NCBI GenBank assembly: GCA_964448855.1
Contig: CAYUXI010000003.1
Span: forward strand, 32,976-96,975
Direction: 5' to 3'
Length of the DNA: 64,000 nucleotides
DNA from: an uncultured Oscillospiraceae bacterium
GTDB lineage: Bacteria; Bacillota; Clostridia; Oscillospirales; QAMX01
The position numbers were made by a program, and so were the translations under genes. The notes below the pieces were generated by a model. That model ran no database searches. It saw nothing but the letters and a program-made list of their open reading frames with translations, and was not told the origin of the DNA. Below are positions 2,131 through 54,147 of the stretch, piece after piece (position 1 is the first letter of the stretch; the number at the start of each line of letters is the position of its first letter).

Positions 2131-3348
2131 CTATTGAATTCTGCCGTTTCCAGATTCTGTCAGAATATTGGCGTCGTCCCGCAGACAGACGACAAAATCC
2201 GGCTGAACTGCCTGAACGTAGTCCAAAATGGACAGGTCGGTATGGTGCCGAAGATCCAGACTTCTTGTTTCGTTGAAGCTCGTATACAGGAAGGTTTCCA
2301 CGGCGTTGGTATAGGAATCGCCAAAAATCAGCACGTTCGGCAGCTCCGGTCGATTCGTCTGCAAAACCGTTTCCGCCACATCTCCACCCATGTACGCCGC
2401 ATAGGTGACAGACGCTGCGTCGTTCTCCGGCAGCACAATCACGGGCGCATCTGTGGGAACGCCGTTGTCCATGCGCGTGTAGGGGATCGGCTGCTGCAAG
2501 GCGTAGGTCCAGAAATCATCCTGCAAACCCGTCAGATAGTAAATCGACCGGCTGCGCGAACCGCGAAACGTCGCCGATACCTTCGAAAAAACGAGATCCG
2601 AATCCGTCAAAACCGGCATCGTCCGCGTCCCGTCCAGCGCCTGAAGGCGCTCCATCATCGTCTGATAGACGAGAAAAGCGCCCTTCAGCGTGTAGTGATG
2701 GTCGGTTCGCATATAAAACTGCTGCATACCACCGGCCTGCTCAAAAACCGGCTGCATACGGAGACAGGCGATCTGCCGCTCCGCCAGTGCGCTTTCGAAC
2801 GCATTCAGCGCCAACGCACGCGACTCGGCACCGCTGTAGAGATCGGCCGGATACACATCGGCAAACGCCGTCATCTGCGTCGGAACGATCACATAGAGGA
2901 ATGTCCCGCCGTACGCGTGAACCGCGTCCTGCAAGGCCAGCAGACGCTCCGCCATGCGTTCCGCACGCGCTGACGTTTCCTCAGGTGCTTCGTCGGAAGG
3001 GGACAGCTCCGGCAGCAGACAATCGTCCGTCGAAATGATGCCGTTGACAATGGTGCGGGCGGCGACATGAAGCTCCAGCCAAGTGTGCCCCATCAGCATG
3101 ATATCGCGGCCGACAATGTGATCCTGAAAGCAGGTTTCACAGTCCGCAAAGAAATCGCCGGAGATCAGCGACTCCCAGGAAGCCTCAGGCAGCTCTGCCA
3201 AGGTGCGGTTTTCAATCTGTGATACCTTTGATTGTGGCAGACAGACGGTGATCACGGGGACGGCGAAGAGGATGGCGACAAAAACGGCGGCAAAGACGAG
3301 ACTGGCTCGGTGCCGCAGCGAATCGGAAGCGCGAGGAGATTCCTGCAT
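2131..3348 (-). CDS. DHHW-motif / AlgX-AlgJ-DltD-like partner protein of MBOAT O-acyltransferase
   Basis: ORF track gives 2131-3369. An AAGGAG ribosome-binding site lies 6 nt before the internal ATG at 3348, so that start is preferred. It has an N-terminal TM anchor and the RTDHHYT motif, and sits directly downstream of the MBOAT gene. Confidence 0.7.
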   Translation of the reverse strand: MQESPRASDSLRHRASLVFAAVFVAILFAVPVITVCLPQSKVSQIENRTLAELPEASWESLISGDFFADCETCFQDHIVGRDIMLMGHTWLELHVAARTIVNGIISTDDCLLPELSPSDEAPEETSARAERMAERLLALQDAVHAYGGTFLYVIVPTQMTAFADVYPADLYSGAESRALALNAFESALAERQIACLRMQPVFEQAGGMQQFYMRTDHHYTLKGAFLVYQTMMERLQALDGTRTMPVLTDSDLVFSKVSATFRGSRSRSIYYLTGLQDDFWTYALQQPIPYTRMDNGVPTDAPVIVLPENDAASVTYAAYMGGDVAETVLQTNRPELPNVLIFGDSYTNAVETFLYTSFNETRSLDLRHHTDLSILDYVQAVQPDFVVCLRDDANILTESGNGRIQ

Positions 3349-3375
3349 ACAAAACTCCTTCCGGATCATACCCGG

Positions 3376-4779
3376 CTAAAACCGGAAATAAATAAATGGA
3401 TTAAAGGACGAAACCGTGATCGATACGACGGAAAGACCGAAGATCATCAGCAGCAGCCCGTCGCACAGAATGGCCAGCCAGGTGTGTGCCTGATAGGCGG
3501 CGCGGAGCCGGCGAGGGAGCGGGAGACAAAAGAGCACCCCCAGCAAAAGCTCCAAATGGTACTGTCCAAACAGATACCGCAGCGAAGGCGCACCGGCTTC
3601 GCCAGCGTTGACACCGCACATCGCCTGCAAATAGGTGACGACCTGTGAGAGACTCCCGGCATTAAAAAGCACCCACCCAATCAGCACCGCCAGCAGCGTG
3701 TAGAGATGGCGGAAAACAGCGGGCATCCTGTCCAATAAACGCGCAAAAAACAGCTTTTCCAGAATCAGAAGAACGGCGTAGTACAGCCCCCACAGCACAA
3801 AATTCCAGGAAGCGCCGTGCCACAGCCCGGTGAGCAGCCAGACAATCAGCAAATTGAACAGCTGACGGACACGCCCACAGCGGTTGCCGCCGAGCGGGAT
3901 GTAAACATAGTCCCGAAACCAGGTGGAGAGGGAAATATGCCACCGCCGCCAGAAATCGGAAACCGAAACGGCCAGATAAGGGTGGTTGAAGTTTTCCGGG
4001 AAGTGAAACCCGAACATCTGCCCCAGACCGATGGCCATGTCCGAATATCCGGAAAAGTCAAAATAAATGTGCAAAGCATAGGCAACTGCACCGAACCAGG
4101 CGGCACCCGCGGAAACCGCCGACAAATCCGCACCGAATACGGCGGACGCGGCCTCACCGAGCGCATTGCCGATCAGCATTTTCCGCCCAAGCCCAATGAT
4201 CAGCCGCCGACAGCCTGCGACAAATTCCTCTGCGGTTTCCCGGCGGTGCAGAAGCTCATCCGCCACCGTCTCATACCGGACAATCGGCCCGGCCACCAGC
4301 TGCGGAAACAGCGCAATGTAGGTGGCGACGTTGAGAATGTTTTTCTGCGGTGCGCACCGAGCCCGATAGACATCCAACACATAGCTCATGCCCTGAAACG
4401 TGAAAAACGAAATGCCAATCGGCATGACAATGGCGGGCACGGTCAGTGAAAGTCCGAACAGCCGGTTCAGATTCGAAACGGCAAACCCGGCATATTTGAA
4501 GAAAACGAGCAGTCCGATGTTCAAAACGACTGCCAAAACGAGCAAGAGCTTCCGCACACGCTCTGAATACCGCGCAATGCCGAGCGCCAACAGCGTATTG
4601 GCAAGAATGGATGCAAGCATTACAAAAATGCCGACCGGCTCTCCATATAAATAAAAGAACAGCGAAAAAATCAGCAGCACACCATTCCGAAGCGAACGGC
4701 AGTGCTGCGGAATCAGAAAATAAGCCAGCAGGACAGCCGGCAAAAATGCAAATAGAAAGGTTAGACTGCTGAAAACCAT
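3376..4779 (-). CDS. MBOAT family O-acyltransferase (AlgI/DltB-like)
   Basis: Polytopic membrane protein with MBOAT hallmarks (WRRWHISLSTWFRDYVYIPLGGNR, GLWHGASW). ORF track starts at 4875, but AGGAGG plus ATG at 4779 (MVFSSLTFLFAF) is the likely start. Confidence 0.9.
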   Translation of the reverse strand: MVFSSLTFLFAFLPAVLLAYFLIPQHCRSLRNGVLLIFSLFFYLYGEPVGIFVMLASILANTLLALGIARYSERVRKLLLVLAVVLNIGLLVFFKYAGFAVSNLNRLFGLSLTVPAIVMPIGISFFTFQGMSYVLDVYRARCAPQKNILNVATYIALFPQLVAGPIVRYETVADELLHRRETAEEFVAGCRRLIIGLGRKMLIGNALGEAASAVFGADLSAVSAGAAWFGAVAYALHIYFDFSGYSDMAIGLGQMFGFHFPENFNHPYLAVSVSDFWRRWHISLSTWFRDYVYIPLGGNRCGRVRQLFNLLIVWLLTGLWHGASWNFVLWGLYYAVLLILEKLFFARLLDRMPAVFRHLYTLLAVLIGWVLFNAGSLSQVVTYLQAMCGVNAGEAGAPSLRYLFGQYHLELLLGVLFCLPLPRRLRAAYQAHTWLAILCDGLLLMIFGLSVVSITVSSFNPFIYFRF

Positions 4780-4932
4780 ACATCCTCCTGCGGTGAAAGG
4801 CCAATCGGGCACTTCCATCCCAAGGATAATTGTACCAGTCTTCCTCTGAAATGTCAACATATTTCCGGCGAACACCGCAGAAAATAGGAATGCGGTTCCA
4901 ACCGCACAGATCGGAAATTTGAGGGGAATTGT

Positions 4933-5103
4933 ATGAACAAATCGTCAAAACGTATCAAGAAACAACAAAAAATGCAGTCGCCGCCACTCGGCAAAACGTT
5001 GGAAATCAACGAGATCGACCACAAGGATTCGTCACAGACACCGCAGCGGACAGACCGCGCAGTCGAATCCTCGTATGAGTGGACACGCTTTACGCAGCTG
5101 TAA
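4933..5103 (+). CDS. small basic hypothetical protein (56 aa)
   Basis: GAGGGG ribosome-binding site 6 nt before the ATG. Sequence: MNKSSKRIKKQQKMQSPPLGKTLEINEIDHKDSSQTPQRTDRAVESSYEWTRFTQL. A 13-bp hairpin follows immediately. Below the ORF-track cutoff, and no homology recognised. Confidence 0.4.
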   Translation: MNKSSKRIKKQQKMQSPPLGKTLEINEIDHKDSSQTPQRTDRAVESSYEWTRFTQL

Positions 5104-5109
5104 CAGCCA

Positions 5110-5138
5110 GACAACCTCCGGAGCCTCCGGAGGTTGTC
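5110..5138 (+). terminator. stem-loop downstream of small ORF (possible terminator)
   Basis: Perfect 13-bp stem GACAACCTCCGGA/TCCGGAGGTTGTC with a 3-nt loop. The downstream T-tract is weak (CTCGTTTGTG). Confidence 0.45.
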
Positions 5139-5178: not shown

Positions 5179-5207
5179 TTGACAAAAATGGCAAAACGTG
5201 CTATACT
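5179..5207 (+). promoter_or_regulatory. sigma-A-like promoter of the peptide-maturation operon
   Basis: TTGACA, a 17-nt spacer, then TATACT. It lies about 210 nt upstream of the ATG at 5415. Confidence 0.55.
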
Positions 5208-5414: not shown

Positions 5415-6812
5415 ATGAATCGCGACGATATCTATTTTGGAACCATTGAACAGCAGGATTCGTTCTTTCTGTCCATCTGCTCGGATGCAAAACGCGCCTA
5501 TTCTTTTTTTCTTGCCGGTACGACACCGTATGGCAAAACGTGGGTTGCCAATAACCATGTCAATCTTCGTGTTGCCTTAGACGCATACCATCATTCGGAA
5601 AAACCGGAAATCAACCTGAGAATGGTTTCCTCTCTGATGGATTCGACCCGCCTGATCGATGCGGTGCGCATTCCGAAACATACAGATTTTCTCAATGACC
5701 CGACGACCGCAGCTGCTTTCCTACGTGAACAGCTGATGGCCGGCAAGGCCGTTGTCTGCGAGCTCGATATGTTTGAGCTGCCGCATAACGAATATACCGG
5801 AAAAGAACATGAGCCACACCGAACGCTGCTGTACGGCATGAATCCAGCAGATGATACGGTGTGTCTTTTTGCATTGGTCTCACAGAACCGGCACACATTT
5901 TCCAACTTTGAAATGCCACTGGAAAAGGTGAGCCGCGCCTTGACGGCGGAATGCTGCATGGACACATCAGATCTTCAGGTCTGTACCCTGAATAACCTCC
6001 CGGAGTATCGGCTGGATCCTGAACTAATCGCGACTCAGCTCCGCTATTTTCTCTCAGGCCAGGATATCAATGCCCAGCTGGAGCTGTTTTTTGACCGTGT
6101 CCCGGATGAAATCCTGAACCGCTCACTGCGCAATACCTATACCAGTGAACAGTTCGTTTTCGGCCTCGACTGCTATACCTGGCTGGCCAAACGACTGCGG
6201 AAAATGGATCATTATCTCCCACTGCTGACATCCCTGCAATCCATTCGGGAACACTTCCAGTGCGCACTCCTTCGCATTTCGGAACTGAACAATGCGGGCT
6301 TCCTGCCTGAGTCTGCGGCTGAGGAGCTGAACAATGGCTACTCTGAGCTGCTTGCTACCACGAAAATCATCCAGATGATGAACATCAAATACAAATTCCA
6401 GCTCGCTGAGCCGGGTCGCCATATGCCGGATCTCCTTTACCGCATCGCTGATCAGCTGGAACAGATCGCAGAAACAGAAAAGCACCTGACATTGCAATTG
6501 CTGGCCTGCCTGACAGAAGCATCTGACACAGCCCCCAATTGCACCCGGTCGAATGAGCGCCCCTGCAAAGCGTCGGTACCTGCTGCGGAGAAAACGATCC
6601 AGGCGGCCTATCAGGACTATGTCCCGTCCCGATACAACCTCCTTCAGCCGGTGGATGATCGCGTTGTTGCGGTCAATACCCTGTGTGGCTCCTTCCTCTC
6701 GCTGAATCCGGACGGAGAAGCCGCCACATGGCTCCGGAAAGGGCTGAAAAACGTCCCGAAAAATCCAATGGCTGATCGTCTCATTGAGCGGGGCTACTTC
6801 GTCCGGAGCTAG
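5415..6812 (+). CDS. unassigned ~400-aa domain fused to an rSAM/SPASM-maturase-type N-terminal (peptide-binding, RRE-like) segment; ends at in-frame TAG
   Basis: AGGAGG ribosome-binding site. The C-terminal 62 aa (PSRYNLLQPVDDRVVAVNTLCGSFLSLNPDGEAATWL...LIERGYFVRS) look like the usual start of SPASM peptide maturases. The same frame continues past TAG 6810-6812 into the rSAM core. Confidence 0.7.
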   Translation: MNRDDIYFGTIEQQDSFFLSICSDAKRAYSFFLAGTTPYGKTWVANNHVNLRVALDAYHHSEKPEINLRMVSSLMDSTRLIDAVRIPKHTDFLNDPTTAAAFLREQLMAGKAVVCELDMFELPHNEYTGKEHEPHRTLLYGMNPADDTVCLFALVSQNRHTFSNFEMPLEKVSRALTAECCMDTSDLQVCTLNNLPEYRLDPELIATQLRYFLSGQDINAQLELFFDRVPDEILNRSLRNTYTSEQFVFGLDCYTWLAKRLRKMDHYLPLLTSLQSIREHFQCALLRISELNNAGFLPESAAEELNNGYSELLATTKIIQMMNIKYKFQLAEPGRHMPDLLYRIADQLEQIAETEKHLTLQLLACLTEASDTAPNCTRSNERPCKASVPAAEKTIQAAYQDYVPSRYNLLQPVDDRVVAVNTLCGSFLSLNPDGEAATWLRKGLKNVPKNPMADRLIERGYFVRS

Positions 6813-6869
6813 GCCAATGAACAGGCTCTGGCCTGCGAACAATGGCAGAGCAGCAGCAACCAGACCAGC

Positions 6870-7955
6870 GTGCTTCGCCTAATTCTGCTGCCGACAGAAG
6901 GCTGCAATTTCCGCTGCCTCTATTGCTATGAAAACCACCAACCGACCAGAATGTCTGATGAAACGGTTTCTGACATCCTGACGTTTGTCCGACAGAATAT
7001 CCATAACTATGCGGCACTTCGCATCTCGTGGTTCGGCGGTGAGCCGCTGCTCTTCATGGACTTGATCGAACACCTCTCCACCGAACTGATCGATATCTGC
7101 CGCAGGGAACGCCGCCTGTATATTTCCGATATCACGACAAACGGTTACCTGCTGACGCCTGAGATCATGAAAAAGCTGCTGCGTCTGCGTGTTCTCTCGT
7201 ATCAGGTCACGGTGGATGGCTCTGCCGCCATTCATGATCGAAACAGACCGCTGGCCAACGGCGAAGGAACCTACGATACCATCACGAAAAATATTCGCAA
7301 AATCCGCCGGGAAGTCAAAACAGGAACGTTCCAATTCCTCATCCGTGTCAATTTCACACGGGAAAGTCTCGAAGAATTTGACAGCTTCTCTGCCGAATTG
7401 CAACGGCTGCTCGCCGGTGACAAACGGTTTCATTTGCTATTCCGCCCGGCCGGAGACTGGGGTGGCCAGATCGATGAGCGTATCCGCTGCTCCCTTGTGA
7501 CGGAAAAGAGCGAACAGGTGCTCGAACGGATGCTCCGGAAAAATTCAAACCTCGACCTCCGAGAACATCTCGATTTCCTGCTGCCCTGCGGCTACCTCTG
7601 CTATGCCTCATGCGCCTCAGCCTTCGTGATTGACCCGCAGGGAATCGTCCGCAAATGTACCTGTCACCTGGAATCCGATGCCAACTGCATCGGAAAGCTC
7701 GAAAACGGCAAACTCCTGCTGGATCGGTATGCGGCAGCTCAGTGGAGCCTGGCATCGGTCGCTCCGTCAGAAACCTGCAAACAGTGCGTGATGTTCCCGG
7801 TCTGCGGAATGTCGGCGTGCCCGGCCAATCGAATTGTTCTGAAAAAACCAGAGGATGATTCGGGCTATGAAAACTGCCCGCTGGAATCGAAACTCCTCCC
7901 GCAGCTGATCGCGGCGATGGAACGGAAACATGATTTCGAAAGGATGGACGGATAA
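6870..7955 (+). CDS. radical SAM / SPASM-domain peptide-modifying enzyme core
   Basis: CNFRCLYCY (CxxxCxxC) lies 11 aa after the GTG start given by the track. The C-terminus has SPASM-type Cys clusters (CYASCASAFVIDPQGIVRKCTC, CKQCVMFPVCGMSACP). There is no ribosome-binding site before 6870, and the ORF is in the same frame as 5415-6812. Confidence 0.85.
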   Translation: MLRLILLPTEGCNFRCLYCYENHQPTRMSDETVSDILTFVRQNIHNYAALRISWFGGEPLLFMDLIEHLSTELIDICRRERRLYISDITTNGYLLTPEIMKKLLRLRVLSYQVTVDGSAAIHDRNRPLANGEGTYDTITKNIRKIRREVKTGTFQFLIRVNFTRESLEEFDSFSAELQRLLAGDKRFHLLFRPAGDWGGQIDERIRCSLVTEKSEQVLERMLRKNSNLDLREHLDFLLPCGYLCYASCASAFVIDPQGIVRKCTCHLESDANCIGKLENGKLLLDRYAAAQWSLASVAPSETCKQCVMFPVCGMSACPANRIVLKKPEDDSGYENCPLESKLLPQLIAAMERKHDFERMDG

Positions 7956-8014
7956 CCATGAAGAAAGAAGTTCTGGATGGCATTCTGAATGCGTTGGAAT
8001 AGGCGGTTTCAGAC

Positions 8015-8443
8015 GTGGATGATATCGTCAAAACGGTTCGCAAGGGCAAAGATGTTGATCTCCGCAACGTGATCATTGACTCCTTTCAGTTTATTTCTTT
8101 TATAATGGACGTGGAGGATCAGCTGAACATCGAAGTTCCGGACGAACTGCTGGTATATGATCATTTTGCCTCTCTACTTGGCTTTGCGGAGCTGATGAGC
8201 ACCGTCAAAGAAGAGTACGAAGAAGAGTACGAAGAAGAGTACGAAGAAGACGAAGAAGAGTACGACGAAGACGAAGAAGACGAAGAAGAAGACGAAGAAG
8301 ACGAAAAAGACGAAGAGGAAGACGAAGAGGAAGACGAAGAGGAAGACGAAGAGGAAGACGACGAAGAAGACGAAGAGGAAGAAACAGAGCTGAAAGTGCT
8401 TGATCGAACCATGCGTGGTCCGTGGTCAGGCTTTTTAAGATAA
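8015..8443 (+). CDS. acyl-carrier-protein-related protein with polyacidic C-terminal tail (probable true start ATG 7958, interrupted by TAG 8000-8002)
   Basis: ACP-like helix-2 region NVIIDSFQFISFIMDVEDQLNIEVPDELL with the Ser of a DS motif. The in-frame upstream stretch MKKEVLDGILNALE-TAG-AVSD reads like ACP helix 1. The tail is 58 residues of Asp/Glu apart from 4 Tyr and 1 Lys. Confidence 0.7.
   Translation: MDDIVKTVRKGKDVDLRNVIIDSFQFISFIMDVEDQLNIEVPDELLVYDHFASLLGFAELMSTVKEEYEEEYEEEYEEDEEEYDEDEEDEEEDEEDEKDEEEDEEEDEEEDEEEDDEEDEEEETELKVLDRTMRGPWSGFLR
8207..8383 (+). repeat. GAA/GAG/GAC triplet-repeat region encoding the polyacidic tail
   Basis: Tandem GAAGAGTAC x3, then reiterated GAAGAGGAAGAC / GAAGAAGAC units. 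The region is coding. Confidence 0.85.
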
Positions 8444-8461
8444 ATGAAGGGAGGCGAAATC

Positions 8462-8608
8462 ATGAAGCAGCTGAAAAAACTGGTCAAGCCGTCCAAAAAG
8501 GCGGCAAACGCCATCGTGACACTGTATGTCAATGAAAACCAGTGTGGCGATCCGTGTGGTGCCAGCAAATGCACCAATGAATCACAGTGCGGCAAACGTT
8601 GCACCTGA
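8462..8608 (+). CDS. Cys-rich precursor-peptide candidate (48 aa)
   Basis: GGGAGG ribosome-binding site (8449-8454) 7 nt before the ATG. Sequence: MKQLKKLVKPSKKAANAIVTLYVNENQCGDPCGASKCTNESQCGKRCT, ending in TGA. It has a Lys-rich leader-like half and a core with five Cys. It sits between the ACP-like and protease genes and is absent from the ORF track (<60 aa). Confidence 0.75.
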   Translation: MKQLKKLVKPSKKAANAIVTLYVNENQCGDPCGASKCTNESQCGKRCT

Positions 8609-8641
8609 TGCCGCAACAGAAGCGTTGAAACGGGGTCAGCT

Positions 8642-10408
8642 ATGAATGTTCGAATTTGGATTGTGGACAGCGGCGGAGCGCCGGGCGCAGAAAACAGCCG
8701 GGTCTTCCGCAACGGTTCACTGTACCCGGATGAAGTAGGGGATCGCTTCGGCCATGGAACCGCAGTCAGCGGGATCATTGGCTCCGGCGCCCCAACAGCA
8801 GAACTCACCCATGTTCGCCTGGTGAATCAGGAAGCGCAAGCCACGGCCGATGAGCTGACGGCACTGCTGGTATACATGGATGCCCATGCAGATGTCGATC
8901 TGATTCATATGAGCCTTGGTGTCACGGGCGGTGACCTGCAAGCCCTGCATACGGCCTGTGTGCGCCTTGCGGAAAAGGGTGTCATTCTGGTTGCTGCATT
9001 TGATAACGGCGGTGCCATCTCCTATCCGGCTGCATTCCCGGAGGTCATTGGCGTGAGTTCCAACCCGGCCTGCAGGCGCAAAGATGCCTTCCGCTTCTGT
9101 GATGACAGCGTGTTGAATCTGCTTGCACACGGAAATGTGCAGCGCGTCCGTTGGACGGAACCGAAATACCTGCTGATCACCGGCAACAGCTTTGCCGTAG
9201 CACACGTCACTGCGTGGGCGGCCAACGAAATGTCCAGGTCGAATCATCGCCTCACCCGAGCGGACCTTCTGGAACGCTTCCGGAAAGCCGCACGGGATGT
9301 GGTATCCTTCGGCTCGGAACCGCTTCCGCAAAAGCTCCCGTTTGAAATTCGTCGGGCTGTGCTGTTCCCGTTCAACAAAGAAATGCACGCACTGATCCGC
9401 TTTCGTGATCTGCTGCCATTTGAAATCGTCGGGGTCTATGAGGGGCGTTATGCCGCCACCATAGGCACTTCGGTATCGCAGCTTGTCGGTACATCAGGCG
9501 CAGAAGATCTGATGATCCGAAAGCTCAGCGACTGCGATTTCGACAGCTTTGACACGGCGGTCATCGGTCACTGCGGTGAGCTGGCCAGACTGGTGAATCC
9601 ATCGCTCATGACGGCCTGGATCCGCCGCCTGGCGGCACACGGAAAGAACATCTATTCCTTTGATGATCTGTCCGACCTGCTGCCGGGTTTCTCCTATGAA
9701 CGCTGGTTTTATCCGCATATTAAGCGGTCTGATCTCCCGCCGGATCGCTGTGGGAAGCTGTTCCGAATTCAAACGCCGGTGCTCGGCGTTTTTGGAACCA
9801 GCTCCAAACAGGGGAAATTTACGTTGCAGTTGGCACTTCGAAAATGGCTGATAGCAGAAGGCTATCGCGTCGGGCAAATCGGAACGGAACCAACCGCTCT
9901 ACTGTTCGGCATGGAACGCTGCTATCCCATGGGATATGCCTCGTCGGTCGAAGTGTCCGGCACGGATGCCGTGCGTTGGTTGAATCATGCGATGAACGAT
10001 ATCTCAGAAGACAAAGATATTCTGATCGTTGGCTCACAATCAGGTACCATTCCGTTCAGCTGCGACAATACCGCGTATTTCTGCTTCCCTCAGCAGGAAT
10101 TCCTGCTGGGCACGCAGCCGGATGCCATCCTCCTGTGCATCAATCCATATGATGAACCGGATTATATCGGCAAAACCATCCAAATGCTGGAAGCAGCAGA
10201 CGCAACAGTCATTGGATTGGCTGTCTTTCCAATGACCTTTCAATCTGAACTCAATCTGCTTGGAAAACGCAGATTGACACAAGAAGAGGAGACGCACCTG
10301 CTGCAACTTTTACGACAGCAGTTTGATCTTCCGGCCTGGATTGTTCGGGATCCGGCCGATGTCGAAGAAATTGCAGACTGTGTCATCCACTTTTTTACAA
10401 CCTGTTAA
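8642..10408 (+). CDS. S8 (subtilisin-like) serine peptidase fused to a DUF1611/DgcN-like C-terminal domain
   Basis: Asp/His/Ser triad contexts IWIVDSGG, GHGTAVSG and GNSFAVAHV, plus AAFDNGG. The C-terminal half shows VFGTSSKQGKFTLQL, ILIVGSQSGTIPF and LLGTQPDAILLCINPYD, which parallel the DUF1611 motifs (GTDxxxGK, EGQG, GxxPDaxxL) as I recall them. Confidence 0.8.
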   Translation: MNVRIWIVDSGGAPGAENSRVFRNGSLYPDEVGDRFGHGTAVSGIIGSGAPTAELTHVRLVNQEAQATADELTALLVYMDAHADVDLIHMSLGVTGGDLQALHTACVRLAEKGVILVAAFDNGGAISYPAAFPEVIGVSSNPACRRKDAFRFCDDSVLNLLAHGNVQRVRWTEPKYLLITGNSFAVAHVTAWAANEMSRSNHRLTRADLLERFRKAARDVVSFGSEPLPQKLPFEIRRAVLFPFNKEMHALIRFRDLLPFEIVGVYEGRYAATIGTSVSQLVGTSGAEDLMIRKLSDCDFDSFDTAVIGHCGELARLVNPSLMTAWIRRLAAHGKNIYSFDDLSDLLPGFSYERWFYPHIKRSDLPPDRCGKLFRIQTPVLGVFGTSSKQGKFTLQLALRKWLIAEGYRVGQIGTEPTALLFGMERCYPMGYASSVEVSGTDAVRWLNHAMNDISEDKDILIVGSQSGTIPFSCDNTAYFCFPQQEFLLGTQPDAILLCINPYDEPDYIGKTIQMLEAADATVIGLAVFPMTFQSELNLLGKRRLTQEEETHLLQLLRQQFDLPAWIVRDPADVEEIADCVIHFFTTC

Positions 10409-10421
10409 TGGAGGGATCATC

Positions 10422-11102
10422 ATGAAAAGGAAACCGTTCAGCGGTATCAGCGAAACCTTGTCCTTTATGTTCTCCTTTATCTGGAAGCATCAAAAATCCT
10501 TTTTCCTCTGGAATACGGTTCAAAATCTGGTCGTTCCGGGGACAAACCTCGCAGAGGTCTGGCTGTCCAAGCTGGTGATGGACGAAATTTTTTCCGAAAC
10601 CCGGACAGTTGAAAGGATTGCATTCTACGTTGGATTGATGCTGCTCTGCTACCTGGTGCGCAATTGCGTCCGTGAGCTGACCTATACGTTGATTAGTAAC
10701 AATCGAACCATCCTCTACCACCGGTTCCGCCAGATGATGATTAGCACCGTCTGTGAAGCGGACTATGAGCTGTTGGAAACGCCGGTCACGCACGAACTGA
10801 AAGAAAATGCGGAGCAGGTGGCATATGGGGACGGCGCCGGCTTCTGTGCCATTGTTCAGGAGCTGTTTTCTCTGAGTGGCAACTTCATCACCCTGGCCGG
10901 TATCACAGCGATTATTTTCACGTTGAACCCGCTGTTTGTCCTGTTGCTGCTGGCGCTGATTTTTGTAAACTCCATGGTTCGCAATCAATGCAACAAGATT
11001 GAATATTCGCTGCGAAAAAATCGAATTCCGATTGAACGGAAATCAAACTATCTGTCGGATATTTCCGAAGGCTTTGAATACGGAAAAGAGGTTCGCCTCT
11101 GA
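10422..11102 (+). CDS. ABC exporter, N-terminal transmembrane part (ends at in-frame TGA 11100-11102)
   Basis: GGAGGG ribosome-binding site plus ATG 10422 (MKRKPFSGISETLSFMF). TM helices typical of type-I ABC exporter membrane domains. The frame continues after the TGA. Confidence 0.75.
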   Translation: MKRKPFSGISETLSFMFSFIWKHQKSFFLWNTVQNLVVPGTNLAEVWLSKLVMDEIFSETRTVERIAFYVGLMLLCYLVRNCVRELTYTLISNNRTILYHRFRQMMISTVCEADYELLETPVTHELKENAEQVAYGDGAGFCAIVQELFSLSGNFITLAGITAIIFTLNPLFVLLLLALIFVNSMVRNQCNKIEYSLRKNRIPIERKSNYLSDISEGFEYGKEVRL

Positions 11103-11156
11103 AACCTGAAAAATTTCATCATTGAGAGACTGGAAAAGCATGATGCGGTAGCTGAA

Positions 11157-12239
11157 ATGTTTTACCGGAGGAGCACCCGGGTCAGCGACCGTGCCAGCTA
11201 TCTCTCCTATATCACATCACTGATTCAGCAGGGCGCCTCCTATTCCTACCTGGTCTTTCTGGTCTTCACGGAAGGCATGACCATCGGTTCGTTCACCATG
11301 TACATGAGCGCCCTCAACAAGTTCAACGGCGTCTTCAATTCGTTCTTCAGCGCCTACACCGAGATGGCAAACTCGAAGCTCTATTTCCAGGATCTACAGA
11401 ACTTCCTGAACCTGAAACGCCGCGCTGATGACTCGGGCTCGGAAAAACCACAGTTGAAACAGGACACCGTCATTTCCTTCTCGCACGTCTCCTTCCATTA
11501 CCCCGGAACCGACCGCGACGTCCTCCACGATGTCACCCTCGATTTCAAGATCGGCGAAAAGGTTGCGCTCGTAGGTGCCAATGGCGCGGGCAAGTCCACC
11601 TTTATCAAGCTGCTTGTGCGTCTGTATGACCCGACGGAGGGTGAAATCCTGCTGAACGGCAAAAACATCAAAGAGTATGACTACAACGAGTACCTGAACC
11701 TGTTTGCACCGGTATTCCAGGATTTCAAACTGTTTGCATTCACACTGCGCGAAAATCTGGCGCTGACCGGCGAATACGATGATGAGCGCATGGAGAAAAT
11801 CGTCCGTCAGGTCGGACTGGATTCGCGCTTTGCGGAACACGGTCTGGACACCATCCTGTACAAAGAGTACGATGAAAGCGGGACGGAGCTGTCCGGCGGC
11901 GAAGCACAGCGCCTGGCGATTGCCCGTGCGCTGTACCGCAATAGCCCGATGGTTGTTCTGGATGAGCCCACCGCCGCACTCGACCCGCTGGCGGAATATA
12001 ATATCTACCAGATGTTTGGCGATCTGGTCAACGGCAAGACGGCCTTCTTTGTCACACATCGTCTGGGTTCGGTTCGTTTCTGCGACGACATTCTCGTCTT
12101 TGACAACGGACAGGTGGTTGCCCGCGGTACACACAGCGAACTCATGAAGAAGAATGACATTTATGCGGAAATGTTCACCAAACAGTCCGATATGTACAAG
12201 GAACTTGAATCCCAGCAGCCGGCAGAAGCGGCGCTGTAA
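11157..12239 (+). CDS. ABC exporter, C-terminal TMD remainder plus ATP-binding domain (coding sense resumes at 11103, same frame)
   Basis: Walker A GANGAGKST, signature LSGGEAQRLAIARAL and Walker B VVLDEPTAALD. There is no ribosome-binding site before ATG 11157. Confidence 0.85.
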   Translation: MFYRRSTRVSDRASYLSYITSLIQQGASYSYLVFLVFTEGMTIGSFTMYMSALNKFNGVFNSFFSAYTEMANSKLYFQDLQNFLNLKRRADDSGSEKPQLKQDTVISFSHVSFHYPGTDRDVLHDVTLDFKIGEKVALVGANGAGKSTFIKLLVRLYDPTEGEILLNGKNIKEYDYNEYLNLFAPVFQDFKLFAFTLRENLALTGEYDDERMEKIVRQVGLDSRFAEHGLDTILYKEYDESGTELSGGEAQRLAIARALYRNSPMVVLDEPTAALDPLAEYNIYQMFGDLVNGKTAFFVTHRLGSVRFCDDILVFDNGQVVARGTHSELMKKNDIYAEMFTKQSDMYKELESQQPAEAAL

Positions 12240-32631: not shown

Positions 32632-34679
32632 ACGGAGAAATTCTGGCTCCCTGCGGCGATTTTTCCTGCATGGAAGCCGCGGTCCGCTGTGGCGCGGATG
32701 CGGTTTACTTTGGTGCCGGCAATTTCAACGCACGCCGCAATGCGGGCAACTTTGATGGAAAAGCCTTTGCCGACGCCATCGCATACTGCCGCATCCGCGG
32801 TGTCAAAACCCATATCACATTGAATACGCTGCTGCATGACGACGAACTGGATGAAGCACTCCGCGTGGCCTGCCAGGCGGCGGAGGCCGGTGCAGACGCC
32901 CTGATCGTACAGGATCTCGGCCTGGTGCGCCGCATCCACCGCATCCTCCCGACGCTTCAGCTACACGCATCCACTCAGCTCACAATTCACGATTGCAACG
33001 GCCTGTATGCGGCGAAATCGCTCGGCTTTTCGCGCGTGGTGCTGGCACGGGAGCTTTCACTGAACGAGATTCGCGCCATTTGCCGGGAAGCGGAAAGCAT
33101 CGACATGGAAACTGAGGTCTTCGTTCATGGTGCCCTCTGTATGTGCGTATCCGGTCAGTGCTACCTGTCCTCCATGATCGGCGGGCGCAGCGGGAATCGC
33201 GGCCTGTGCGCACAGCCGTGCCGCCTGCCGTTTACGTCACCGTCTGCTGACAATGCATATGCGCTCTCGCTGAAGGACATGAGCCATCTGGCCTACCTGC
33301 AAACGCTGCGGGAGGCGGGTGTGCATTCCTTCAAAATTGAAGGCCGGATGAAACCACCGGAATACGTCGCAGCTGCCGTGACAGCGGCCAGAGAAGCGCG
33401 TGACTTGGGTGCAGTCAGTGAGAAAACAGCACGTCGGCTCCACGCTGCATTTTCCCGCTCCGGGTTCACCGACGGCTACCTGACCGGAAAACGGCAGAAT
33501 ATGTCCGGTATCCGAACTGTGGCCGACAAAGCGCTGACCTCCACGGTTGCCAGCGCACTGCATACGCTGTACCGCACCGAACGGCCACGCATTGACCTGA
33601 CGGCCGTCCTGTCCTGCCAAATCGGTAAACGCGCTGCGCTGACTGTGTCGGACGGAACGTTCCACGTGACCGCAGAAGGTACCGAGGTTCACCCCGCTGA
33701 GGGCAGACCGCTGGAACAGGAGGCTGCCGAAGCGCAGCTCTTCCGGACAGGCGGCACGCCGTACCGGATGACCTCCCTCCAACTGGACGTGGAGGACGGC
33801 GCGTTCGTGTCCGTTTCCGAACTCAATCGGATGCGCCGAACCGCTCTGGATTTGTTGACGGCCAAACGCAGCCAGCCGCAAGCGATTCAGGCGCAGCCGG
33901 ATCCGGTCGTCCGCTCCAAACGCCCCCATCACCTGAACGGCCTCGCCGCCCGGTTTTATCAGACGCTGCCGGAATCCCTGACGGGGATTACCCGCGCATC
34001 ACTCGTCCATTCCGCATCGAATGAGCAGTTTCAGCGCCTCCTGCGCGAAATCGGGGATGTGTCGGTTGAACTCCCGCGAACCTTCTGGGGTGACGATACG
34101 GCGCTGCGTACCCGCCTGATGGAGCTGAAGGCACTTGGCGTCCGCCGGGCGCTGTGTGAACACCTTGCAGCTGTCCGGCTGGCAGAAGAACTCGGCTTCG
34201 AAATCCATGGCGGTGCATTCCTGCAAATCACCAACTCCGATGCACTGGCAGCAGTAGAGGCACTCGGCGTCTCGTCTGCCGTCGTTTCGTTTGAAAACAC
34301 AACGCAGCAGACCGCCCGCTTGCAGACGAGCCTGGATATCGGACTGGTGGGCTATGGCTTCCTGCCACTCATGATCACGCGCTGCTGTCCGCTGCGCACG
34401 GAACACGGCTGCAGAAAAGGCTGCCAGGGCGGCTATATCACAGACCGCAAGGGCAAACGCTTCTTCGTCCGCTGCCGGGACGGCGCTTCGGAAATCCTGA
34501 ACTGCGTCCCGTTGATGATGAGCGACCGAAAACAGGATTTGGCCGATGTGGACTTTGTCATGCTGTATTTTACCGTTGAAACGCCCAGCGAGATCGCATC
34601 CGTCCTGGATGCCTGGCAGAACGGCCGCGCACCAGAAGGCGAGTACACGCGTGGCCTCTATTATCGCGGCGTTCAGTAA
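32628..34679 (+). CDS. U32 family peptidase-like protein
   Basis: N-terminus ILAPCGDFSCMEAAVRCGADAVYFGAGNFNARR, the motif E..VHGALCMCVSGQCYLS, and 683 aa. Confidence 0.8.
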   Translation: MNGEILAPCGDFSCMEAAVRCGADAVYFGAGNFNARRNAGNFDGKAFADAIAYCRIRGVKTHITLNTLLHDDELDEALRVACQAAEAGADALIVQDLGLVRRIHRILPTLQLHASTQLTIHDCNGLYAAKSLGFSRVVLARELSLNEIRAICREAESIDMETEVFVHGALCMCVSGQCYLSSMIGGRSGNRGLCAQPCRLPFTSPSADNAYALSLKDMSHLAYLQTLREAGVHSFKIEGRMKPPEYVAAAVTAAREARDLGAVSEKTARRLHAAFSRSGFTDGYLTGKRQNMSGIRTVADKALTSTVASALHTLYRTERPRIDLTAVLSCQIGKRAALTVSDGTFHVTAEGTEVHPAEGRPLEQEAAEAQLFRTGGTPYRMTSLQLDVEDGAFVSVSELNRMRRTALDLLTAKRSQPQAIQAQPDPVVRSKRPHHLNGLAARFYQTLPESLTGITRASLVHSASNEQFQRLLREIGDVSVELPRTFWGDDTALRTRLMELKALGVRRALCEHLAAVRLAEELGFEIHGGAFLQITNSDALAAVEALGVSSAVVSFENTTQQTARLQTSLDIGLVGYGFLPLMITRCCPLRTEHGCRKGCQGGYITDRKGKRFFVRCRDGASEILNCVPLMMSDRKQDLADVDFVMLYFTVETPSEIASVLDAWQNGRAPEGEYTRGLYYRGVQ

Positions 34680-52878: not shown

Positions 52879-53276
52879 CCGTCGGAACCGATATCGAAGA
52901 AATTGAACGTTTTGAATCTGTGCTGACGAATCGGCGGATGATGAAACGCTGCTTTTCTGAACAGGAACGCACCTATTTTGAGTCGCGTGGGCAAGGTGCT
53001 GCCGAAAGCGCTGCCGCCGCATATTGCGCCAAAGAGGCATTCGGCAAAGCCGTCGGCACCGGGATTACCGTGTCCATGCTTGGCGAACTGGAACTGCTGC
53101 ACGACGCAGCCGGAGCGCCTTACCTCCAATTGCATGGCAAGCTGGCCGAACAATATGCGAATATGAAGCTCTCCGTCTCCGTCTCACACAGCGCCAGCTA
53201 TGCCATTGCAACCGTTCTCGCATACCGCGAAACGCCCGAAGCCGAATCCGAAGGAGATGACGGAGATGCTTGCTGA
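52869..53276 (+). CDS. acpS: holo-ACP synthase (4'-phosphopantetheinyl transferase)
   Basis: VGTDIEEIERF, FSEQERTYF and CAKEAFGKAVGTG are typical of AcpS. About 135 aa. Confidence 0.85.
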   Translation: MYLTVGTDIEEIERFESVLTNRRMMKRCFSEQERTYFESRGQGAAESAAAAYCAKEAFGKAVGTGITVSMLGELELLHDAAGAPYLQLHGKLAEQYANMKLSVSVSHSASYAIATVLAYRETPEAESEGDDGDAC

Positions 53277-54147
53277 ACAGGTTCATACAGAGCTGATTCG
53301 CCGCCTCCTTCCACCTCGCAGACAGGATACGCACAAAGGCCACTATGGCCGCGCCATGCTGATCTGCGGCGCGCTGGGCTATTCGGGCGCAGCTTTTTTC
53401 TCCGCTGAGAGTGCTGTTCGAAGCGGTGCCGGACTGGTTGATCTGACGGTTCCGGCCGCCATTTTCCAAACCGTCGCCGTCAAGCTGAACGAAGCGATGG
53501 TGTATCCACTCCCGGATACACCGGACGGTATGTTTGACGATGGCGCGATTCCTATCCTTCTCAAACGGATGGAATGCGCCGACGCCATTTTGATTGGTTG
53601 CGGTCTGGGACGCAGTGAACCGGTCTCCCGGCTGGTTCAATCGGTTGTTACTCACGCCAAAGTTCCGGTCGTTGTGGATGCAGATGGCATAAATGCGCTG
53701 GCTGCACATAAAAATATCCTGCGGGATGTTCACACACACCTGATCCTGACACCGCATGACGGCGAATTGACCCGTTTTCTGGGCGAAGCGCCGGTTCGAC
53801 CGGGCGAATTCAGAACCGATGCGGCGGCGCGCCTGGCAACAACGCTGGGCGTGACGCTCGTGATGAAGGGCCACGAAACTGTGACCGCTGATGCTTCCGG
53901 CAAAACGCGCATCAACACCACCGGCAACGCCGGAATGGCAAAGGGCGGAAGCGGCGATGTGCTGGCCGGCATGATCACGGCTCTGGCGGCACAGGGGCTT
54001 TGTCCGTTTGATGCTGCGTCTGCCGCTGTCTATCTGCATGGCCTCGCGGGGGATCTGGCACAGCGCTCATCCGGCGAAATCGGCATGACGCCGACGGATA
54101 TGTTGCGGCTGATTCCACAGGCGTTTTATCAGTGCCGAGGTGTTTAG
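53266..54147 (+). CDS. nnrD: ADP-dependent NAD(P)H-hydrate dehydratase (YjeF C-terminal type)
   Basis: THKGHYGRAMLICGALGYSGAAFFSA, LTPHDGE and GNAGMAKGGSGDVLAGMI. The start is chosen by the AAGGAG ribosome-binding site. Confidence 0.8.
   Translation: MLAEQVHTELIRRLLPPRRQDTHKGHYGRAMLICGALGYSGAAFFSAESAVRSGAGLVDLTVPAAIFQTVAVKLNEAMVYPLPDTPDGMFDDGAIPILLKRMECADAILIGCGLGRSEPVSRLVQSVVTHAKVPVVVDADGINALAAHKNILRDVHTHLILTPHDGELTRFLGEAPVRPGEFRTDAAARLATTLGVTLVMKGHETVTADASGKTRINTTGNAGMAKGGSGDVLAGMITALAAQGLCPFDAASAAVYLHGLAGDLAQRSSGEIGMTPTDMLRLIPQAFYQCRGV

Follow-up and report, generated by a model that had tools for sequence, protein, structure and literature searches.

A carrier-protein gene with a length-variable polyacidic linker in a recently inactivated radical SAM peptide-maturation cluster of an uncultured Oscillospiraceae bacterium

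The 64,000-nucleotide stretch of contig CAYUXI010000003.1 that was analysed here (positions 32,976 to 96,975 of the forward strand, called the window in the following) contains a cluster of five genes spanning 6.8 kb, three of which are interrupted by an in-frame stop codon. The second of these genes encodes a carrier protein with a long polyacidic segment and is the subject of this study. A first-pass annotation, made from the letters alone, had placed this gene in a RiPP locus (for a peptide made by the ribosome and then modified post-translationally), and a precursor, a radical S-adenosylmethionine (rSAM) maturase, a protease fusion and an exporter indeed adjoin it. Related loci are given L numbers and homologous proteins P numbers. 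The cluster and the elements within it are, by position in the window:

5179..5207, plus strand: sigma-70-like promoter candidate, TTGACA-17-TATACT with a TG extension (11 of 12 consensus positions), proposed from the consensus match alone
5415..7955, plus strand: gene for a BtrH_N (papain-fold) - RiPP recognition element (RRE)-like - rSAM/SPASM maturase, one reading frame, split by the TAG at 6810-6812
6810..6812, plus strand: in-frame TAG in the BtrH_N-rSAM frame; CAA (Gln) in L008, AAA (Lys) in L006
7958..8443, plus strand: carrier-protein gene (acyl carrier protein (ACP)/DltC fold) with polyacidic linker, a pseudogene in the window
8000..8002, plus strand: premature TAG, codon 15 of the carrier; TGG (Trp) in L006, L007 and L008
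8081..8083, plus strand: invariant Ser codon TCC (Ser42 in full-length numbering), predicted phosphopantetheine site at the start of helix 42-56
8210..8383, plus strand: polyacidic segment of 58 residues (53 Asp/Glu, 4 Tyr, 1 Lys), at the DNA level a degenerate GAA/GAG/GAC repeat, variable in length, with predicted disorder
8384..8440, plus strand: conserved 19-residue C-terminal motif TELKVLDRTMRGPWSGFLR, core motif HGPxS / DRTM[RH]GPWSG
8462..8608, plus strand: 48-aa precursor peptide, its leader rich in Lys and its core with 5 Cys, intact
8642..10408, plus strand: S8 protease (subtilisin-like, QhpE-like) fused to a DUF1611/TIGR04066-like P-loop domain, intact
10422..12239, plus strand: ATP-binding cassette (ABC) exporter (permease and ATPase), split by the TGA at 11100-11102
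11100..11102, plus strand: in-frame TGA in the exporter; TGG (Trp) in L006

The same order of genes, namely BtrH_N-rSAM/SPASM fusion, carrier, 48-residue precursor, S8-DUF1611 fusion and ABC exporter, is found uninterrupted in the loci L006, L008 and L016, and parts of it are seen in L017 and on the short contig L007. L008 belongs to a metagenome-assembled genome (MAG) labelled “uncultured Oscillospiraceae” and is 93% identical to the window over a syntenic 10 kb. More distant relatives are arranged differently: in L013 the order is Transglut_core protein, rSAM, carrier, second rSAM, precursor (MRAIKKTSKRVKKFALVCLYG...), ABC and S8/DUF1611, in L009 it is Transglut_core protein, rSAM, carrier and rSAM, and in L011 a carrier of 82 residues is followed by the peptide MKKLIKPTSKIKKYTKVILYGNEN.... 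In every locus examined, including distant relatives, the carrier gene lies directly 3' of an rSAM maturase gene. The cluster is a variant, found in a few uncultured gut-type Oscillospiraceae, of the known TIGR04066/04068/04069 “Cys-rich peptide maturation” clusters. As a side observation, the precursor ORF and the S8-DUF1611 gene share a reading frame and are separated by a TGA and 33 nt (8606-8641); this arrangement recurs in L006, L007 and L016 and may be a coincidence (a short spacer without indels).

Sequence models assign the protein to the carrier proteins with weak but mutually consistent matches. The window ORF (8015-8440) matches the PP-binding family PF00550 at 21.2 bits, which narrowly reaches the Pfam gathering threshold of 20.8, and precomputed PF00550 matches exist for its relatives P0004, P0005, P0009 and P0011. 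Models for ACP, DltC, AmcB and AsbD match with E-values between 1e-3 and 1e-7 (1e-5 to 1e-7 for ACP and DltC). A profile search, run exhaustively over 1.84 billion cluster representatives, returned two clusters with more than 160 bits, P0002 and P0004; the next tier reached at most 75 bits and comprised 432 proteins at E <= 1e-3, mostly of 80 residues. A scan of JGI metagenomes with the carrier profile gave no match. In the AlphaFold2 model of the intact P0002, the predicted local distance difference test (pLDDT) score is 92-97 over residues 1-90. When this model was compared with the PDB by Foldseek, the best 50 matches were all carrier proteins or complexes containing one (target-normalised TM-score up to 0.78), headed by DltC, ACPs and aminoacyl carrier proteins, and the best match in a profile search of the PDB was the aminoacyl carrier protein 4H2W (E = 4.6e-7). 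Ser42 of the D-S motif is invariant in an alignment of 48 sequences. As modelled, the core has the four helices of an ACP/DltC-type fold, and the invariant Ser occupies the position where phosphopantetheine is attached in such proteins. The protein had earlier been called ACP-related and said to keep the Ser of the DS motif; the family match, the core pLDDT above 90 and the carrier proteins among the PDB matches bear out the former, and the invariance of the Ser in the 48 relatives the latter.

Although positions 7958-8443 had been taken as an open reading frame, an in-frame stop had been overlooked. On the plus strand, the frame beginning at ATG 7958 reads MKKEVLDGILNALE and is then closed by TAG at 8000-8002 (codon 15). 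Beyond this stop it runs on through DSFQFISFIMDVEDQLNIEVPDEL, the 58-residue acidic run (8210-8383) and the C-terminal motif to TAA at 8441-8443. The intact homologs P0001 and P0002 read ...NALEWAVSD..., with Trp (TGG) where the window has TAG, and the uninterrupted frame expected of a functional carrier gene is thus missing in the window, where the stop replaces the conserved Trp15. The longest clean carrier ORF starts at GTG 8015, has 142 aa and lacks the predicted helix 1 (residues 2-16); the automatic gene calls of 127 and 142 aa from this GTG are truncated artefacts. We also rejected a minus-strand ORF at 8161-8808 (215 aa, poly-Ser) as a gene, as it is the antisense of the GAA/GAG repeat and overlaps three conserved plus-strand genes.

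The three stops of the cluster are TAG, TAG and TGA, two of them G>A changes from TGG to a stop, and the cluster contains no frameshifts. Five ENA contigs, L001-L005, share 98.5-99.8% identity with the window. All three stops are found in L001 and L003; L002, L004 and L005 have each one that falls within their coverage, and the TAG of the carrier is present in all five. The stops are therefore real alleles and not sequencing errors. In three related lineages (L006, L008 and L016), the cluster is intact. Branch-specific changes were counted with L006 as the outgroup and amounted to 89 synonymous changes, 23 non-synonymous changes and 2 countable stops on the branch of the window, and to 101 synonymous and 23 non-synonymous changes on that of the intact L008; an excess of non-synonymous change, as a sign of relaxed selection on the window branch, was not seen. 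Since the changes on the window branch are mostly synonymous, the inactivation is recent rather than ancient. The window thus holds a recently inactivated copy of the cluster, and we infer that its strain makes no functional carrier protein. The loss of three genes could be due to chance after a first knockout or to selection for loss of the cluster.

The composition given earlier for the acidic segment (58 residues, made up of 53 Asp/Glu, 4 Tyr and 1 Lys) is exact. Its description as a tail is less apt, as the segment is not terminal but followed by the conserved 19-residue motif. This motif stands after the segment in all nine alleles, as DRTM[RH]GPWSG or, in the L016 group, as KKHGPDSYQE, and the segment is therefore better described as a linker. 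A comparison of its length among homologs, which the first-pass annotation had proposed, yields 22, 23, 26, 34, 34, 43, 46, 58 and 69 residues for the nine alleles from three lineages, where the individual lengths are uncertain because they come from short-read metagenome assemblies in which repeats may be collapsed. P0153, P0002 and P0155 have the same core and segments of 22, 34 and 69 residues. Every close homolog thus has an acidic segment, and all nine alleles keep the frame and the C-terminal motif. The lack of such a tail in homologs, which had been named in advance as a refutation, is therefore not seen among the close ones. In the DNA of the segment, Tandem Repeats Finder detects periods of 9, 12, 21 and 30 with scores of 121-196. 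Between the window and L001 there are clean indels of 21 bp and 24 bp and no substitutions, and the in-frame expansion and contraction of repeats that had been suggested is therefore found at the strain level. The residues that punctuate the acidic stretch differ between lineages: Tyr (EEEY) in the group of the window and L008, Phe in L006 (63% Asp/Glu) and a DED-type pattern in L016. Judged by these sequences, acidity is conserved in the segment, and sequence and length are not. With a pLDDT of 53-70 in the model of P0002, the segment behaves as a disordered, length-tolerant linker.

One explanation of such a segment would be a neutral low-complexity expansion, i.e. an acidic repeat that is prone to slippage and sits at a permissive site without any specific function. 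The clean repeat-unit indels between strains and the predicted disorder are what this explanation expects, and the segment is absent from most of the wider family (104 of the best 150 relatives have fewer than 10 residues after the core). However, three lineages have kept an acidic segment although the identity of their cores is down to about 56%, and in the L006 lineage, where substitutions have brought in F, V, G, S and N, Asp and Glu still make up 63% of it. No allele has lost the segment or shifted the frame, and the downstream motif is always kept. We regard a neutral expansion as rather unlikely. A few of the best 150 relatives, P0011, P0018, P0030 and P0070, have acidic tails of 15-29 residues (aromatic-rich in the first three). 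Distant carriers at L013 8001-8324 and L009 5000-5308 with short acidic/aromatic tails (e.g. ...DDDYDGEESDID and ...QEDDFFEV) sit between two rSAM genes and next to a transglutaminase-core protein, which hints at a repeated origin of acidic-aromatic C-termini in this carrier family. A literature search on acidic tails of carrier proteins in RiPP systems found nothing relevant.

A specific function that had been proposed for the segment is capture of the leader peptide: it would bind the poly-Lys leader electrostatically and so act as a chaperone of the precursor, hand it over to the maturase or cancel its charge for self-protection. The precursor ORF (8462-8608) encodes 48 residues with the leader MKQLKKLVKPSKK...LYVNE and a core with 5 Cys, and the six Lys that had been counted in its first 13 residues are there. 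The charges are complementary (about +6 for the leader and about -52 for the segment), the three close lineages all keep both features, and basic-leader precursors also accompany shorter acidic/aromatic tails in a few of the distant relatives (P0018/L013). However, the Lys-rich leader is found across the whole wider family, including L011, where a tail-less carrier of 82 residues adjoins an equally Lys-rich leader, and those 104 of the best 150 relatives end shortly after the core. Moreover, the leader is nearly invariant while the length of the segment changes threefold (22-69 residues). The acidic stretch is thus not required for handling the leader, and the conserved motif behind it suggests tethering rather than a free capture arm. 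The idea of capture and chaperoning is weakened by these observations and now appears doubtful. Self-protection by the segment, which had also been considered, is unnecessary on grounds of charge, since the predicted mature core peptide has a net charge of about zero and needs no neutralisation.

In L006, L008 and L016, the BtrH_N-rSAM gene is intact and encodes 817-846 aa (845-846 in L006 and L008). The maturase matches Radical_SAM at 72.5 bits and TIGR04463 at 175 bits, below the cut-off of the latter; its nearest relatives are the Cys-rich-peptide families TIGR04463, Clo7bot, CefB and PapB, for all of which it stays below the curated cut-offs. Its N-terminal domain matches PF14399 (BtrH_N) at 30.4 bits (cut-off 29.7) over part of the profile, and Cys22, His132/135 and Asp146/147 of this domain are invariant in 4 homologs. 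The BtrH_N-RRE half found no match in a profile search against PDB sequences and a single fragment in a word-indexed homolog search. BtrH itself is an ACP:aminoglycoside acyltransferase, and CtaG of Clostridium is a BtrH/C39-like, carrier-protein-dependent transacylase that transfers acyl groups from carrier to carrier (PMC10318531, PMC7183216). In the distant clusters L009 and L013, a Transglut_core protein, another papain-fold acyl-transfer catalyst, takes the place of BtrH_N. The S8 domain matches the QhpE model at 121-127 bits (cut-off 165); for the DUF1611/DgcN domain fused to it, a literature search found nothing relevant. Finally, the product of a TIGR04069-containing cluster of Paenibacillus polymyxa resisted Edman degradation, a weak hint of N-terminal blocking. 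The earlier hint at acyl transfer to the peptide is strengthened by the fusion to the maturase of a BtrH_N domain whose Cys, His and Asp are invariant, by the activities of BtrH and CtaG, by the transglutaminase-core substitution, by the presence of a separate S8 protease for removal of the leader and by the Edman-resistant product; on the other side stand the missing loading enzyme and the peptidase alternative discussed below.

With moderate confidence we therefore favour the reading that the window carrier is the inactivated form of an accessory component of an rSAM/SPASM cluster for a Cys-rich RiPP, and that its intact forms are phosphopantetheinyl carriers which serve a papain-fold transacylase and use the acidic stretch as a tether. 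In intact clusters, the Ser of the carrier would be phosphopantetheinylated, and the carrier would present a thioester-bound acyl or aminoacyl group to the BtrH_N domain or, in the distant relatives, to the Transglut_core protein. An amine of the peptide would then receive this group by the action of the papain-fold BtrH_N domain, and a contribution to the loading may come from the DUF1611 P-loop domain. The polyacidic stretch would act as a flexible, length-tolerant and highly charged spacer that tethers the carrier domain, via the C-terminal motif, to a partner enzyme. Electrostatic attraction of the stretch to the cationic leader may be an optional extra.

Several observations weigh against this reading. 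The PF00550 score of the window ORF is marginal, and TIGR04069, the curated family of carriers from such clusters (cut-off 70 bits), did not match the window ORF at E <= 0.01, nor P0001, P0002 and P0004 even at E <= 1. None of the cluster genes can be recognised as coding for an adenylating or loading enzyme, and a dedicated phosphopantetheinyl transferase is missing from the cluster as well. The BtrH_N domain could equally be a leader peptidase of the C39 type, and an AlphaFold model of the BtrH_N-RRE half, built from two sequences, was unusable (pLDDT 35). The docking role of the C-terminal motif is wholly conjectural, and the lengths of the linker series carry the uncertainty of the assemblies mentioned above.

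The carrier could instead be a structural subunit, i.e. a non-catalytic ACP-like partner that stabilises or regulates the rSAM/SPASM enzyme or the S8-DUF1611 protein and brings no cargo to the peptide, in analogy to the association of ACP with LYR proteins or IscS. The position of its gene immediately 3' of the rSAM gene in every locus examined, distant relatives included, and the lack of a loading enzyme would fit this role. The strictly invariant Ser and the co-occurrence of the carrier with an acyl-transfer fold of the BtrH_N or transglutaminase type argue against it; this evidence is not decisive, as partners of the LYR type also use the acyl-phosphopantetheine arm. On balance, a purely structural role seems improbable to us. 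Going beyond the transacylase reading favoured above, the Ser-phosphopantetheinyl carrier, the papain-fold domain (BtrH_N or transglutaminase-like) and the DUF1611 P-loop might together form a thiotemplated acylation module that acts on an rSAM-cross-linked Cys-rich peptide, with a hyper-expandable linker that recruits the poly-Lys leader in the Oscillospiraceae subfamily. In this full form the proposal is speculative and unlikely to hold in every part. If it were true, the module would be an unrecognised hybrid of RiPP and carrier-protein chemistry that is common in gut Clostridia.

Outside the cluster proper, the following features of the window bear on these questions:

2131-3369 and 3376-4875, minus strand: DltB-like MBOAT O-acyltransferase and AlgX/DHHW SGNH-like protein, transcribed divergently from the cluster
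4933-5103, plus strand: ORF of 56 aa, MNKSSKRIKKQQKMQSPPLGKTLEINEIDHKDSSQTPQRTDRAVESSYEWTRFTQL, just 5' of the cluster; 80% aa identity in L006 and 98% in L008
13535-13610 and 13639-13716, minus strand: tRNA-Thr(GGT) and tRNA-Asp(GTC), just 3' of the transporter gene neighbouring the cluster, neither with a suppressor anticodon
52869-53276, plus strand: AcpS (holo-ACP synthase), overlapping the start of a 315-aa ORF at 53200-54147

The assignment of AcpS, which had been made earlier from the translation, agrees with a TIGR00516 match of 71.4 bits (cut-off 59.8). The tRNAs are relevant for the possibility that the three in-frame stops are decoded by recoding, suppression or read-through and that the locus is functional in this strain. 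Three stops without a single frameshift, an otherwise low ratio of non-synonymous to synonymous change on the window branch and near-identical assemblies that share the stops wherever these are covered would be compatible with decoding. However, two different stop codons, TAG and TGA, replace Trp, Trp and Gln/Lys, and the neighbouring genes, which are intact, use TAG and TGA as their normal terminators. The only tRNAs found in the window are the two listed, so that it offers no suppressor, and recoding is thus unlikely. Three nonsense changes among about 26 changes of the non-synonymous type are also not unusual (binomial p about 0.14, assuming 5% nonsense). Genome-wide recoding of stop codons was rejected on the same grounds of neighbouring terminators, tRNAs in the window and two kinds of stop, and we consider any functional read-through of this locus very unlikely.

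The adjacent pair of MBOAT and AlgX/DHHW genes (2131-4875, minus strand) raised the question of whether the carrier serves as a DltC-like donor for it, given that the closest solved folds include DltC, that the DltB model scores 176 bits with the MBOAT (which falls short of its cut-off) and that the adjacency to the cluster is kept in L006 and L008. This is scarcely tenable, as the L016/L017 lineage has the full cluster in another neighbourhood with no MBOAT beside it and the distant relatives L009 and L013 lack an MBOAT beside the cluster. Moreover, transcription of the two units diverges, and a ligase of the DltA type is absent. Pairs of MBOAT and AlgX/DHHW proteins normally work without a carrier protein. 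We thus rejected the carrier as a component of this pair on account of L016 and L017, and the pair is probably unrelated to it, its adjacency being incidental. The 56-aa ORF between the two units is followed by a hairpin with a 13-bp stem (5110-5138) and then by the near-consensus promoter-like site at 5179-5207. It has no match to any family; a regulatory function is conceivable, as is a second peptide product.

Annotations of ACP-related proteins in rSAM “Cys-rich peptide maturation” clusters go back more than a decade, and no assigned role was found in the literature searched. The subfamily described here offers handles on this role, namely the invariant Ser, the fused BtrH_N domain that points to carrier-dependent transacylation and a natural series of linkers of 22-69 residues. 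Within a known kind of RiPP accessory protein, the family stands out as a carrier whose polyacidic linker is hypervariable and followed by a C-terminal motif, a feature that is non-random even if the copy in the window has decayed. Intact relatives, encoded in the MAG contig CAZEUG010000031 (a protein of 172 aa) and on the L016 contig, make the role experimentally approachable.

The closest known systems are the clusters of TIGR04066, TIGR04068 and TIGR04069 with a subtilase and an ABC transporter that have been noted in Roseburia intestinalis L1-82 (PMC4573289) and Paenibacillus polymyxa SacP23 (PMC10731318). As in the window cluster, a small ACP-fold protein is encoded there beside an rSAM/SPASM enzyme that matures Cys-rich peptides, together with a protein of the TIGR04066/DUF1611 type, a subtilisin-like protease and an ABC exporter. 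In contrast to them, the rSAM of the window cluster resembles TIGR04463, Clo7bot and CefB more closely than TIGR04068 and is fused to BtrH_N, the TIGR04066-like domain is fused to the S8 protease, and the carrier of the subfamily adds a polyacidic linker of 22-69 residues and a C-terminal motif. The curated thresholds are not reached, with 93-102 bits for TIGR04068 (the CcpM rSAM; cut-off 500) and 83-87 bits for TIGR04066 (cut-off 200), and the distant relative P0020 alone attains 23.4 bits against TIGR04069. We thus rejected membership of the carrier in TIGR04069, whose model threshold it misses; by its sequence it is an analogue or relative of this family. Experimental work on the function of ACP-fold proteins in such clusters was not found in the literature searched.

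Aminoacyl and D-alanyl carrier proteins (PDB 4H2W; DltC 4BPG and 8I32) are the best matches by profile and structure and have the same four-helix fold and Ser position. Unlike the window carrier, however, they are loaded by dedicated ligases (aa:CP ligase, DltA), which the window cluster lacks, have no acidic extension and occur in a different genomic context. The butirosin proteins BtrI/BtrH and the clostridial closthioamide proteins CtaE/CtaH-CtaG also combine a stand-alone carrier with a BtrH_N-family domain, whose Cys, His and Asp the window cluster keeps. In the cluster described here, this domain is fused to a RiPP rSAM maturase, and the acceptor would be a ribosomal peptide. The thioether systems QhpC/QhpD/QhpE and those of the ranthipeptides (PapB-type) likewise use an rSAM/SPASM enzyme on a Cys-rich peptide containing Asp, Glu or Asn, and the S8 domain of the window matches QhpE below its cut-off; these systems differ in having no carrier protein, BtrH_N domain or DUF1611 domain, and the window proteins score below the curated cut-offs of their families.

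A disordered, acidic and length-tolerant stretch that ends in a short conserved motif for docking to a partner is also found in the C-terminal tail of the bacterial single-stranded DNA-binding protein and in the C-terminal docking domains of polyketide synthases and nonribosomal peptide synthetases. The likeness of the window linker to these is an analogy only, with no sequence relationship.

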